Part shown: positions 2,941 through 6,279 of the stretch, one piece after another
How the letters are laid out: each line of letters starts with the position of its first letter
Position numbering within the stretch: the stretch's first letter is position 1
DNA from: Candidatus Micrarchaeota archaeon
GTDB taxonomy: Archaea; Micrarchaeota; Micrarchaeia; Norongarragalinales; SBBD01
DNA length: 6,279 nucleotides
Assembly (NCBI GenBank): GCA_038046605.1
Contig: JBBSVW010000001.1
Location: forward strand, 1 to 6,279
Direction: 5' to 3'
The notes under the pieces: model-generated
Database searches by the model: none
Seen by the model: the letters and a program-made list of their open reading frames with translations, nothing else
What the model was told of the DNA's origin: nothing
Translations under genes and position numbers: made by a program

Positions 2941-4229
2941 AATTTTCGTCCCCTTTGCAAATTCAGTTTTGCAGGAGACAATCAAGGAAATGCGGTTCGC
3001 GGAGTAAGACCACCCTCGCAAGGGAGGCATCCGGGAATGAAAGTGCTGAGGGATTGTCTGTGCCTCCTAGGCATGGATAATTCCGTTTATGAAGCGGTAT
3101 AGGAAAGAATTTCACTGAGAGTAGTGCTACAAGCCGTTCAGTGGATTGCTAGGCTTGGGTAACGACGACGGGCGCGGCAAGCGGCGAAACGCCCCGGGTA
3201 GGCGCATGCAGCCTTTGATCCGGGGATCCCCTAATTTTTCCGGAAGGAAAGAAGACCGCCTGAATTGAAATATCTTAGTAAGGCGAGGAAAAGAAATCAA
3301 CAGAGATTCCAGTAGTAACGCGAGTGAACCTGGATTATAGGGCAAACCGAATCTTCCCCGCAAGGGAGAAGCATATGTGGTGTGCTAGGCCCCTTTTTTA
3401 ACGCAGTAAGTTAGCCAAGGTTCGTTGGAAAACGACGTCATAGAAGGTGAAAGCCCTGTAGGCGAAAACGATGCTGGGTGTAAGGAGGCCTCGAGTAGGG
3501 CTCGGCGATTTCCGAGTTTGAATGGGAGTATTAACTTCCAACCCTGAATATACCCCAAGACCGATAGCGTATTAAGTACCGTGAGGGAAAGCTGAAAAGC
3601 AGCCAAAAAATGGCAGTGCAAAGTGCATGAAACTGAAACGGCTACATTAAGGTGCGGCTTAAAAGCTGGTATGATCGCAAGTGACAGCGAAGTTGCACCC
3701 TACTTCTTGAAGCAAGAGCCAAGGAGTTCATAGGAGTGGCGAGCATTGAGCGAAGCGAAAGCGAGGCGCACGCACCGTCCGCAAGGACGGGAGGTGCGAC
3801 GTTGTAATTAGCGTCAAGTCACTAATATGAGACCCGAAGCCAAAGCGATCTAAGCGAGCGCAGGGTGAAGCCGTCCTTCCGGATGGTGGAGGCCCGCAAC
3901 CGTTTCTGGTATATCCGATCGGGTGACGCTTGTTTAGGGATGATAGTTCATTCGAGCTTGGCGTTAGCGGGTTCCCTCCGAAGTGTATCTAAGTACAGCC
4001 TCCGTCGAGACTTATAATAGGTAGAGCGACTGATTTGGGGGAGCGGGGAGTAAAATCCTCACCTCCTTGTCAAACTCCGAAGCTATTATGGTCGCAGAAG
4101 CGGGGAGTTGGGATACCCGAGGTAAGCGCGGGTTCCGTGAGGGGAACGACCCCTACTGCGGTTAAGGTCCCAAAGAATTGGCTAAGTGTAAATGCAAGAT
4201 GTCATGGATCTCAGACAGCGGGGAGGTAG

Positions 4230-4975
4230 ACGATACTAGCACGAAAGCAGTTGAAGTTAAGCTTCACTGGAAATCACGTCTAAGAGAACTTATAAACCAT
4301 AAGTTTGATGAGAGATGCGATAATAGATGAAGCCAAATGAACTTGAGAATAAGTTGCCGACAAGGGAGCATATGATTGCTTACCTGTTGGGAGCATTTAG
4401 AGACGGCAGCATTCACAAGTATGGCGCAAGCCGTGAAATAATTGTTTGGCAGAAAAATCCAGTGTGGCTTGAAGGGATTTCATATTTGATTAGGCAGGTT
4501 TTTGAAATCAAGACAATGCCGAAGAAGACGATTGGTGGTTGGAGGTTAAAATTCAAATCAAAGCAAGTATTTGAAATGCTTGTGAAAGATTTTGGTTTTC
4601 CTCAAAGCGGAAAACAAATTTATTGGAAAACGCCTAGTGCGGTTCTTGAGGGAGCAATTCCAAAGGAATCGTATTTAAGCGGATTTTTCGATGCGGAAGG
4701 TTCCGCCCAAATAAAGCCGCCAGCGCTTCATTTTTTCCAATCTTGGAATTTGGAAAACATTTGTCCTCCTCTTGAGGATTTGAAAAACATGATGCAAGAG
4801 TTAAGGATTGATGCGGGCAAAGTCAGATTAAGGAAGCCTACTATTTACGCGAATTATCCAAGGTTTATACTTTCGGTAAGCAACAAGCGCAGCGTAATTA
4901 ATTTTTATCAACAAATTGGATCTCTTCATCCCGATAAGGGAAAAAACCTTCAACTTGCTGCTAGTAACGGCCAAG
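4230..4975 (+). mobile_element. BHB-type 23S intron (746 nt) in helix 43 (GTPase-associated centre), after E. coli-equivalent G1062, carrying a homing endonuclease gene
   Basis: Stem CGaTACTAGCA (4231-4241)/TGCTAGTAaCG (4959-4969), continued by GCAGTTGAAG/CTTCAACTtGC. Central helix AGGT/GCCA pairs at 3 of 4 positions; bulges AG^A and AG^G. Removal restores the H43 length. Confidence 0.92.
4290..4296 (+). promoter_or_regulatory. Putative TATA box (TTATAAA) preceded by purine-rich AAGAGAA, inside the intron
   Basis: Begins 37 nt upstream of ATG 4327. Motif match only, in AT-rich sequence. Confidence 0.35.
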
Positions 4976-4998
4976 GAACAGAAGCTCCCATCCTTTAA
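4327..4998 (+). CDS. Two-motif LAGLIDADG homing endonuclease; the genomic ORF runs 23 nt past the intron end (4975) into 23S exon
   Basis: Motifs YLLGAFRDGS and YLSGFFDAEGS; visibly similar to the 221-799 protein. Confidence 0.92.
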   Translation: MKPNELENKLPTREHMIAYLLGAFRDGSIHKYGASREIIVWQKNPVWLEGISYLIRQVFEIKTMPKKTIGGWRLKFKSKQVFEMLVKDFGFPQSGKQIYWKTPSAVLEGAIPKESYLSGFFDAEGSAQIKPPALHFFQSWNLENICPPLEDLKNMMQELRIDAGKVRLRKPTIYANYPRFILSVSNKRSVINFYQQIGSLHPDKGKNLQLAASNGQGTEAPIL

Positions 4999-5527
4999 AC
5001 AACGCGTAACAGCGGACCCGTCAAGATTCGTGGCGTCGTAAACTATCGGGACTCAAGCCAATCACCGATACCGTGGAATTGCATAGTTAATGCAAATTTG
5101 GTAGGAGGGCGAACGGGCTGGGCAGAAGTTGGGCTGTGAAGTCCAATGGACCAGCTTGTTACGAAAATCTTGGTGCTAGTAGCATCTATTCCAGGCGAGA
5201 ATCCTGGACGTCGAAAGGGCAAGGGTTTCTTGGCAACGCTAATCAGCCAAGAGTTAGCCGGTCCTAACGCTAAACGTAACCGTGATGCGGAAAGGGAAAG
5301 CAGTTAATATTCTGCTGCCTTCTAGGTGAACGCGGCAACGCAAGCTTACATCTGACGCTTGTGGGTACGCCAAGTGCAAGCAATTGCATTCAAGCTGACC
5401 ATCTCAAAGAAGTCTTGTTGAGAGGAGCATTTGAGAAAGCAGCGATGAGCGATGAGTTTGGCTCAGCCCAAAAGCCCATGAAAAGGGTGTATGATTTTTT
5501 CTAGAAGACCGTACCGAGATCCAGTAC

Positions 5528-5836
5528 ATTCCCGCCTTCCTCAGTATTTTTAATTGTGCAGTATGAAATTAGTATGGTGATATTATGCCTGAATTGCTTG
5601 CTGACGATTTAGTAAAAGTCAATGAATTGTTTAAACGTATAAACACTCGTTTACCAACGGTAATTGAGTTGCATAATGGAGGTACAATCAGACAAGCAGA
5701 GCGAGAAAGACTTGCAATGCAAATAAAAACTTTTGAAGAGGCAATCAAAGAGTTTAAACGCAAGCATGGAGGGCATGATTTTTCAAAATATATTGCTTCA
5801 AAATAATACTTATTACGAGGAAGGCGGGATACTGAA
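5528..5836 (+). other. BHB-type 23S intron (309 nt), after E. coli-equivalent C1617, carrying a non-endonuclease ORF
   Basis: Perfect 13-bp stem TCCCGCCTTCCTC (5530-5542)/GAGGAAGGCGGGA (5817-5829); central helix CAGT/ACTG; bulges AC^A and AA^A; exon stem ATC/GGT. Splicing gives CCAGTAC|AGGTGCCCC. Confidence 0.94.
5585..5806 (+). CDS. Hypothetical 73-aa helical protein encoded in a 23S intron
   Basis: The ORF fills the intron loop. GGTGAT (5576-5581) is exactly complementary to the 16S 3' ATCACC in this window. Start and stop are both inside the intron. Confidence 0.72.
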   Translation: MPELLADDLVKVNELFKRINTRLPTVIELHNGGTIRQAERERLAMQIKTFEEAIKEFKRKHGGHDFSKYIASK

Positions 5837-5976
5837 AGGTGCCCCTAGCTGAAAAAGCTAAGACGTGACAGGAGAACTGACGCAAGGGAATTCGGCAAAT
5901 TGGCCCAATACCTTCGGTATAATGGGTGCCTACATCTCTTCAAAGATTTATCGATGGGGATTTGTAGGTCGCAGTG

Positions 5977-6076
5977 ACTTCCAGCAGAAGAAAGAAAAGA
6001 TGACGAGTCTGAACAACCTCTGATCTATGACGATGTTGATAGCGACGGATTTTTCGATATCTGATGGAGGCTGTAT
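5977..6076 (+). other. 100-nt BHB-type 23S intron, after E. coli-equivalent position 1758
   Basis: Central helix GCAG (5971-5974)/CTGT (6071-6074); bulges TG^A and AT^A; stem CTTCCAgCAGA (5978-5988)/TCTGaTGGAGG (6060-6070). Splicing restores GTCGCAGTG|ACCAGGGG. Confidence 0.92.
5994..6055 (+). ncRNA. Putative box C/D methylation-guide sRNA nested in the 23S intron
   Basis: Box C ATGACGA (6000-6006), 13-nt guide, box D' CTGA (6020-6023), 3-nt spacer, box C' ATGACGA (6027-6033), 12-nt guide, box D CGGA (6046-6049). Terminal stem GAAAA (5994-5998)/TTTTT (6050-6054) is placed as required for a K-turn. Confidence 0.75.
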
Positions 6077-6279
6077 ACCAGGGGACATCGACTGTTTAAC
6101 AAAAACACAAGTCATCGCTAAGTCGAAAGGCTGTATACGATGGCTGACGCCTGCTCACTACTAGTACCTGAACCCGGGTTTCAACCTGGTGAAGGGCTAG
6201 CAAAAAGCGGGAGTAACTCTGACTCTCTTAAGGTAGCGTAATACCTCGCCGCTTAATTGGCGGCTTGCATGAATGGCGT

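Follow-up and report, generated by a model that had tools for sequence, protein, structure and literature searches.

A bulge-helix-bulge intron in a micrarchaeal 23S rRNA gene

The window, by which we mean the whole stretch of DNA analyzed here (6279 bases, from contig JBBSVW010000001.1 of a Candidatus Micrarchaeota archaeon), covers part of an archaeal rRNA operon, as identified with Rfam. A 16S rRNA gene at 13-2098 and a spacer tRNA at 2346-2414 are followed by a 23S rRNA gene that begins at 3117 and runs past the window end at position 2079 of the 2987 positions of the model. Near the end of this 23S segment, positions 5977-6076 form an insert relative to the archaeal large-subunit (LSU) rRNA model RF02540, immediately upstream of the conserved GACUGUUUAA element. 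The insert has the features of a bulge-helix-bulge (BHB) intron, and its interior has those of a guide RNA. In our judgment this 23S intron probably houses a complete dual-guide box C/D small RNA (sRNA) aimed at the A-loop of the same rRNA.

The intron, which like its parts is read on the + strand, is 100 nt long and falls between RF02540 positions 1876 and 1877; its coordinates were read by hand, and all were checked by script. The central 4-bp helix of the BHB consists of GCAG in exon 1 (5971-5974) and CUGU near the 3' end of the intron (6071-6074). It is flanked by two bulges of 3 unpaired nt each, UG|A at 5975-5977 and AU|A at 6075-6077. BHB cleavage falls after the second bulge base, which predicts a 5' splice site after 5976 and a 3' splice site after 6076. 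The predicted 5' site follows both from this rule and from the restored junction: once the intron is removed, GCAGUG|ACCAGGGG is left, in agreement with CGCAGUGACuAGGGg, the archaeal LSU consensus of Rfam, and the two exons meet between model positions 1876 and 1877. On the intron side, the BHB continues into a 6-bp helix (CUUCCA at 5978-5983 with UGGAGG at 6065-6070) and a second stalk stem (CAGA at 5985-5988 with UCUG at 6060-6063). The 3' strands of these two stalk helices occupy 6060-6070 and include a CUGA at 6061-6064. The minimum free energy (MFE) fold of 5971-6080 gives exactly this arrangement of 4-bp helix, two 3-nt bulges, and intron-side helix. An intron of this form would be spliced out and probably circularized.

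Box C/D anatomy of the intron

What does the stalk enclose? A generic layout scan finds the full series of elements of an archaeal box C/D sRNA, in the order C-guide-D'-C'-guide-D. Box C is AUGACGA (6000-6006), with C for U at its fifth position. It is followed by the 13-nt D' guide GUCUGAACAACCU (6007-6019), whose fifth base upstream of box D' is A6015 and whose predicted target is the U2552 equivalent in the A-loop of helix 92. Box D' is CUGA (6020-6023; also checked by script), and a linker of only 3 nt, UCU, separates it from box C', AUGACGA (6027-6033), which is matched as well by a model of the second half of such RNAs (6027-6044, described below). The 12-nt D guide UGUUGAUAGCGA (6034-6045) has A6041 as its fifth base upstream of box D and a target that is a candidate only. 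Box D itself is CGGA (6046-6049), with G for U at its second position, and this G can pair with C6004. The layout, written as a regular expression, has 1 match in the window and matched in 0 of 2000 dinucleotide-preserving shuffles.

Boxes C and D are brought together by a terminal stem, the canonical kink-turn (k-turn) stem, in which GAAAA (5994-5998) pairs with 6050-6054. The 3' strand of this stem, UUUUUC (6050-6055), is supported by the folds and by alignment with a second intron, from the contig called L001 below. Next to the stem, GAU at 5999-6001 forms a 3-nt bulge, after which come G6002.A6049, A6003.G6048, C6004-G6047, and G6005-C6046. Boxes C and D thus carry one substitution each, at positions that face one another, and the same variants occur in family members. 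In Rfam searches, eight box C/D families match at the place and on the strand of the intron among 13 matches below threshold, the best being sR2 (26.1 bits, E value [E] 0.0013, against a gathering score of 42).

The initial annotation of this DNA had proposed a BHB intron, a C/D layout spaced at 13, 3, and 12 nt, and a k-turn with GAU as its 3-nt bulge. All three hold: the intron by the RF02540 insert, the consensus-restoring excision, and the MFE fold, the layout by the scan and its shuffles, and the k-turn by the fold and the script check.

A family of normally free-standing guide RNAs

Is this RNA peculiar to the intron? Public genome contigs were scanned once with a degenerate pattern in which box C and box D' enclose a 2- to 4-nt gap and then the guide core, two of whose positions were relaxed. 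At least 120 stretches matched. All counts that follow are among the matches listed, which comprise 88 loci (89 hits) with archaeal titles and 32 hits with bacterial titles, and which are cited by L numbers where they must be told apart. The archaeal-titled loci are mostly metagenome-assembled genomes (MAGs) of Micrarchaeota and Altiarchaeota. The second half of the RNA (C', guide, D) was not specified by the pattern, and a complete one, with a 12- to 13-nt guide, is found in 79 of the 89 archaeal hits versus 1 of the 32 bacterial hits. The core reads GAACAACC in every archaeal-titled hit (89/89) and GAACAGCC in 25 of the 32 bacterial-titled ones. The one bacterial hit with a complete second half, L093, is titled Pirellulales bacterium; its RNA is of the perfect Micrarchaeota type (guide GGUCAACAGCGU), so the contig is probably misassigned or misbinned.

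With a single exception (L001), the archaeal loci hold free-standing copies, located between protein genes. A TATA-like element was seen by eye upstream of many of them; a loose TATA-like regular expression matches 56 of 90 listed hits, which is weak, the AT-rich background being uncontrolled. Ten archaeal hits fail the second-half score. Two of them, L001 and L089, are real copies whose boxes deviate, and the remaining three, beyond copies with reordered guides, are the first of two hits in L047, a hit in L053 (Thorarchaeota, without a second half), and L097. The reordered guides, noted by eye, are those of L028, L031, L056, L113, and L115, where an UGAUGGGCGA-type guide comes first and GAACAACC second, before box D.

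The second guide defines classes. Among the 79 complete copies, 50 have ..A(C/U)AGCG.. (Micrarchaeota) and 21 have UGAUGGGCGA (Altiarchaeota), while smaller classes have UUAUGAG (4 copies), CUAAUAGGCGAA (2 copies), or another guide (2 copies). The D guide of the window, UGUUGAUAGCGA, belongs with the first of these: its GUUGAUAGCG is common to L001, L004, L008, L029, L042, L087, L088, and L108, at the same position. The 3-nt D'-C' linker is likewise the commonest one (33/79). Box D lies 12 nt after C' in 75 of the 79. The CUGA at 6061-6064, which the sR2 alignment takes as box D, was rejected because it departs from this spacing, breaks the stalk helix, and creates a 27-nt guide spacer.

The Altiarchaeota type, GAACAACC together with UGAUGGGCGA, is found in L007, L015, L021, L038, L039, L048, L049, L059, L061, L063, L066, L068, L082, L084-L086, L091, L103, L107, L116, and L120. 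Its UGAUGGGCGA guide looks complementary to the 3' strand of helix 92 in the Rfam consensus, in which case both guides would share one hairpin. In some Altiarchaeota genomes, one and the same A-loop guide is found in two sRNAs that differ in their second guide, as in L047, where the two are 155 nt apart, and in L032 and L098, which come from the same MAG.

The relationship of the intron to the family was also approached with a model of the second half. This model uses sequence only and rests on the C'-guide-D segments of 47 Micrarchaeota-type copies, all free-standing; neither L001 nor the window contributed to it, and copies with a 13-nt guide were dropped to keep the rows of equal length. 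Within the window it scores highest at 6027-6044 (11.8 bits, E 0.0065), with a runner-up of 3.1 bits. In L001 it matches at 4282-4304 (18.9 bits, E 3.6e-5); a further weak match there, at 8605-8618, lacks boxes and was discarded as no sRNA. Judged by its boxes and both of its guides, the intron RNA belongs to a family of dual-guide sRNAs that is widespread in Micrarchaeota and Altiarchaeota and normally free-standing; we know of no published name for this family.

Could the box C/D motifs instead be a chance resemblance within an ordinary mini-intron? Rfam scores under the gathering thresholds are what such an accident would give. The idea is effectively refuted, however, by the behavior of the shuffles, none of which reproduced the layout, by the independent match of the second-half model, and by the second guide, which was absent from the search pattern and nonetheless shares a stretch of 10 identical bases, in the same place, with the second guide of eight family members.

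Covariation of boxes C and D

The family also bears on the substitutions in boxes C and D of the window copy. In the 80 archaeal copies listed (the 79 complete ones and L089), box C UGAUGA is always accompanied by box D CUGA (74/74). Box C UGACGA, by comparison, goes with CUGA in three copies, CCGA in two, and CGGA in one. When L001 (CCGA) and the window (CGGA) are added, a D box other than CUGA occurs in 5 of 8 UGACGA copies versus 0 of 74 UGAUGA copies (Fisher p 2e-6, uncorrected for relatedness, with the cases falling in different guide classes). The variant box C is seen also in L001, L003, L017, L073, L089, and L118; CGGA recurs in L089 and CCGA in L001, L003, and L073, and all of these have UGACGA as box C. 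A pair of the C6004/G6047 type is Watson-Crick only in the CGGA cases. The two positions face each other at what we take to be the 3b.3n position of the k-turn, usually U.U in box C/D RNAs. This covariation supports both the k-turn fold and the pairing of C6004 with G6047, and the proposal in the initial annotation that the two deviations compensate one another is well supported: box D departs from CUGA only where box C is UGACGA.

The same intron site in a second genome

The only other copy found within an rRNA gene is that of L001, a 10-kb contig from a Micrarchaeota MAG with a complete 23S gene at 2381-7319. Among the 120 listed loci, it is the sole one that bears rRNA and the sole one in which the match is flanked on either side by 23S exon motifs. 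The guide RNA lies within a 130-nt insert (4204-4333) at the same junction as the window intron, and the spliced sequence would be GCAGUA|ACAAGGGG. The BHB has the same GCAG/CUGU core, with bulges UAA and AAA and an intron-side helix UUCCA/UGGGA. For this core, ViennaRNA favors a register shifted by one base; the register retained here agrees with that of the window and brings the spliced sequence back to consensus length.

Aligned with each other, the two introns are conserved in the boxes and both guides, in the core of the BHB, and in the terminal stem's UUUUUC strand. The sequences of the stalk have diverged yet remain self-complementary, CAGA/UCUG in the window versus CGCCG/CGGCG in L001. 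L001 has features of its own as well: a 28-nt hairpin between D' and C', as in many free-standing copies, a C-D' spacer of 14 nt, box D CCGA, and box C' AUGAUGU. The host 23S genes are about 71% identical in the best BLAST segment, which means that the arrangement is either old or has spread between distant lineages. About 130 nt past the C/D intron, at 4461-4683, the 23S gene of L001 also contains a catalytic intron of group I, which Rfam scores at 62.1 bits against a gathering score of 50; the window 23S has no insert at that site.

The comparison bears on whether the insert is an intron at all. An unspliced expansion segment, kept in the mature 23S rRNA as an arm with an L7Ae-binding k-turn, would not be out of character, since archaeal rRNAs contain k-turns and DPANN rRNAs carry many inserts. 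Yet the insert breaks a conserved strand that runs from one helix to another, both genomes frame it with two 3-nt bulges separated by a 4-bp helix, and its interior is homologous to a free-standing guide RNA and not to rRNA. We therefore regard an expansion segment as very improbable and retain the spliced intron.

Proposed targets of the two guides

If the intron carries a guide RNA, what is it aimed at? The D' guide gives the clearer answer, and L001, with its complete 23S gene, is where it can be read directly. Helix 92 of L001 is UGGGUUGUUCAUCCA, and the L001 D' guide, AGAUUGAACAACCC, pairs with GGGUUGUUCA through 10 contiguous Watson-Crick pairs. Of all matches of this guide in the scanned 7.4 kb, that to helix 92 ranks first, with Watson-Crick pairs at 11 of 13 positions; we estimate that chance would give about 0.007 contiguous 10-mers of this kind. 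According to the Rfam structure line, helix 92 closes on a five-base loop, UGUUC, and the fifth guide base upstream of D' stands opposite its first U. This first A-loop base corresponds to E. coli U2552, which appears as a predicted sRNA target in five species in the relevant portion of Dennis et al. 2015 (PMC4644070).

The D' guide of the window, GUCUGAACAACCU, would form the same duplex on an L001-like helix 92, with a G-U pair beside D', and would thereby target the A-loop U2552 equivalent of its own host 23S rRNA. Immediately 5' of GAACAACC, 50 of 53 Micrarchaeota-type copies have U, and 16 of 21 Altiarchaeota-type copies have C; L001 has A opposite this base, and the pattern suggests lineage-specific matching of guide to target. 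Within the 6279 bases of the window, neither guide has a convincing complement, the matches being at chance level or the guides themselves. The initial annotation had placed the target downstream of the window, and the 23S segment stops ahead of helix 92.

The D guide is harder to place. The best rRNA match of the L001 D guide, GGUUGAUAGCGU, is UCGCUAUCGGCU at 6814, which puts it 48 nt upstream of the target in helix 92 (6862). The fifth base upstream of D would fall on a U at Rfam model position 2599, which, counted from position 2647, would correspond to E. coli U2504. In favor of this target are the proximity of the two sites and, judged from the guides alone, the second guides of other classes, which look complementary to helix 90-92 of the Rfam consensus. 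Two things tell against it. The pairing covers 11 of 12 positions (8 Watson-Crick pairs and three G-U), a quality of which about 1.2 examples are expected by chance by our estimate, and the site is for this reason a candidate only; it also depends on a C and an A in L001 where the Rfam consensus has A and G. The L001 strand in question, which belongs to the peptidyl-transferase loop, reads CGCUAUCGG at 6810-6825 against CGAUGUCgG in the Rfam archaeal consensus; counted by offset, it departs from the consensus at the bases equivalent to E. coli A2503 and G2505. The base facing the first of these two sites is an invariant G in all 47 aligned Micrarchaeota D guides, as if the C were phylum-wide.

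The position of the intron raises the question of whether methylation is the point of the arrangement. Both proposed targets lie downstream of the intron on its own transcript, they are 48 nt apart in L001 (6814 and 6862), and the Altiarchaeota-type guides, from their sequences alone, seem to cover adjoining parts of helix 92. A ribonucleoprotein acting in cis could accordingly hold helix 90-92 open, or couple splicing to the assembly of domain V, with methylation secondary or absent. The fifth-base rule, however, puts a uridine known as a methylation hot spot at the catalytic position, something that a pure chaperone would not need. Chaperone and methylation roles are not exclusive, and as a replacement for guided methylation we find the cis device improbable.

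Weighing the evidence

In the reading that we prefer, the 23S intron carries a guide RNA for its own rRNA, and events could unfold as follows. The intron would be transcribed within pre-23S rRNA, upstream of its targets. Boxes C/D and C'/D' would fold as a k-turn and a kink loop (k-loop) and recruit L7Ae, Nop5, and fibrillarin. The D' guide would pair with the 5' strand and loop of helix 92, placing the first A-loop uridine opposite the fifth base for 2'-O-methylation, and the D guide would probably pair some 48 nt further upstream, with the peptidyl-transferase loop strand. The splicing endonuclease would cut both bulges, the exons would be ligated, and the intron would be released, probably as a circle in which the long stalk closes the terminal stem of the sRNA. 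Protein binding and methylation are predicted here from the form of the RNA, and the RNA could act in cis before its excision or in trans after it.

Several observations weigh against this reading. (i) The intron arrangement is found in only 1 of the 120 listed loci (L001). (ii) No Rfam C/D family reaches its gathering score on the intron. Rfam's archaeal C/D families derive from Sulfolobus and Pyrococcus RNAs, so sub-gathering scores say little about function. (iii) No exon-side helix next to 5970 or 6078 was found in the folds, and the intron thus departs from the strict hBHBh' form; we take it to be of the relaxed BHB form. The splicing endonuclease of Candidatus Micrarchaeum (ARMAN-2) has broad substrate specificity according to the part of PMC3239211 that describes it, and this fits the missing helix. 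(iv) The folding energy is no better than that of shuffles (z -0.48, -0.54, and +1.42), as expected of an RNA whose guides must remain single-stranded. (v) The window ends before helix 92, at model position 2079 of 2987, and the target in its own rRNA is one that we infer. (vi) Boxes C, C', and D of the window copy deviate from consensus. (vii) Its C-D' spacer is 13 nt, where the family norm is 12 (68/79). A spacer of 13 nt is found in 9 of the 13 copies of the GAUAGCG subtype, against 12 nt in 39 of the 40 other Micrarchaeota-type copies, and the 13-nt spacer of the window is for this reason better seen as a subtype character than as a defect.

The last points raise the possibility that the intron copy is a passenger, a decaying guide trapped in a mobile or neutral BHB intron, with the true guide being a free-standing copy elsewhere. 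Free-standing copies are, after all, the rule, in all archaeal loci listed but one. Moreover, no boxes deviate more than those of the two intron copies (AUGACGA together with CGGA or CCGA, and in L001 AUGAUGU as C'), whose C-D' spacers, at 13 and 14 nt, are also longer than the 12 nt of most listed copies. But the deviations of the boxes recur identically in free-standing L003, L073, and L089, and the longer spacer is normal for the subtype. Two 23S genes that are only about 71% identical keep the guides, boxes, k-turn stem, and BHB core, and their stalks have diverged with compensating changes. A passenger is therefore unlikely in our view, if less so than the other alternatives considered, and the functional guide RNA remains the better account.

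How did the guide RNA and the intron come together? The initial annotation saw a domesticated rRNA intron. That the intron carries a guide is upheld, but since the RNA is normally free-standing across Micrarchaeota and Altiarchaeota, a guide RNA gene is more likely to have settled in an rRNA intron than an intron to have turned into a guide. The remaining proposals of that annotation fared as follows. The aim of the D' guide at U2552 is read directly in L001, with 10 pairs and the fifth base in register, and is extended from there to the rRNA of the window. Introns at the same site in relatives, expected to keep boxes and guide, do so in L001 for the site, both guides, and the four-box layout, this being a single ortholog among the listed loci. 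Covariance models place eight C/D families on the spot, all of them below gathering score.

A bolder version of the story is that, in some DPANN archaea, the sole A-loop guide gene has moved into a 23S intron, where modification in cis couples guide supply, modification, and splicing 1:1. The ribonucleoprotein would form on the pre-rRNA while it is being made and would modify the peptidyl-transferase region ahead of excision or in the course of it. We offer it tentatively, as a real possibility that falls somewhat short of being probable.

Other inserts in the operon

The rRNA genes of the window are interrupted at several other places. Rfam alignment of the 16S gene indicates inserts of 643 and 710 nt, at about 138-780 and about 962-1671. 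One open reading frame (ORF) is associated with each, at 221-799 and 1106-1750, and both match the LAGLIDADG_3 homing-endonuclease domain (E 2.5e-05 and 5.5e-12). A third LAGLIDADG_3 ORF (4327-4998, E 5.9e-07) accompanies a 759-nt insert in domain II/III of the 23S gene, at about 4233-4991. Further along the 23S gene, a 311-nt insert relative to the LSU model, at about 5527-5837, has no ORF of at least 80 amino acids, no Rfam match at E up to 0.1, and no C/D layout.

Positions 4000-5900 of the window gave no additional Rfam match at E up to 0.1, and the group I intron model has no match in the window at gathering score. Neither the remaining inserts of the window nor those of L001 hold a C/D-like element by the generic layout scan. 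The spacer tRNA at 2346-2414 rests on Rfam (38.7 bits) and has no ARAGORN call.

Relation to known guide RNAs and significance

Intron-housed guide RNAs are a hallmark of eukaryotes, and in archaea, to our knowledge, the tRNA-Trp intron is the only established case. In yeast, snR52 and Spb1 act on the A-loop, whose uridine is methylated by an RNA-guided enzyme. The place of a guide in an rRNA intron is best judged against the known contexts of archaeal C/D sRNA genes. As set out in the part of PMC7994747 devoted to them, these genes are intergenic with their own promoter, beside or overlapping protein genes, downstream of tRNAs, or within tRNA introns, and rRNA introns are not among the contexts given there. 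In the pertinent part of Lui et al. 2018 (PMC6009581), rRNA introns figure only as an item removed before target prediction. Our literature search, which covered few subscription journals and no supplements, found no description of a box C/D RNA in an rRNA intron.

The closest parallel is the euryarchaeal pre-tRNA-Trp intron, that of Haloferax volcanii and its Pyrococcus counterpart sR50. As described in the corresponding section of PMC7994747, the interior of that BHB intron is likewise a C/D guide for its host RNA, and it is likewise freed by splicing endonuclease excision. The case described here differs from it in three ways: the host is 23S rRNA, the proposed targets are hundreds of nucleotides downstream in another rRNA domain and not in the adjacent exons, and the guide appears to be a relocated member of a normally free-standing family. 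With the free-standing sRNAs of Micrarchaeota and Altiarchaeota, the intron copy shares the GAACAACC D' guide, the Micrarchaeota-type D guide (..GAUAGCG), the order of the boxes, and the 13-nt spacer of the GAUAGCG subtype. Unlike them, the copies of the window and of L001 lie inside a 23S gene, outside any intergenic or TATA-like context.

Guidance of U2552 methylation by sRNAs is not in itself new, having already been predicted for other archaea in the portion of Dennis et al. 2015 (PMC4644070) that treats this nucleotide. Those sRNAs share the predicted target nucleotide and the RNA-guided machinery. They are independent genes of thermophilic Crenarchaeota and Euryarchaeota, unlike the intron copy. 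The bacterial enzyme RlmE (FtsJ, RrmJ) produces the same modified nucleotide, Um2552, but is a protein-only enzyme that uses no guide RNA; it is mentioned in PMC7994747. Fibrillarin, for its part, is reported from more than 90% of the archaeal taxa surveyed in the relevant part of PMC8481954.

Eukaryotic intronic small nucleolar RNAs (snoRNAs), which PMC7994747 mentions as well, are similar in that an intron makes the guide and its supply is tied to transcription of the host. There, however, the hosts are spliceosomal and the RNA is trimmed by exonucleases, whereas here the host is the target rRNA and release by BHB cleavage is proposed. The end product would also resemble the circular C/D sRNAs of Pyrococcus and other thermophiles. 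For those circles, the section of PMC7994747 concerned notes ends that usually lack a canonical BHB and an unclear route to circularity; the BHB would supply a defined route here.

What would the intron mean for these archaea? If the reading is right, it would be a second, independent archaeal intron-housed guide, located in the ribosome's own genes and serving a critical nucleotide of the same rRNA. Guide dosage would be tied to rRNA transcription, and there would be a defined BHB route to a circular C/D RNA. The intron would also provide a natural system for asking whether archaeal guides act cotranscriptionally in cis, and in the family as a whole the k-turn site at which box C faces box D varies naturally. 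Small-genome DPANN archaea would be seen to keep RNA-guided methylation of the A-loop, with the guide present in dozens of Micrarchaeota and Altiarchaeota MAGs. And if the sole guide gene of some lineages has indeed moved into a 23S intron, these archaea would possess a counterpart of the eukaryotic intronic snoRNAs in which the target itself is the host.

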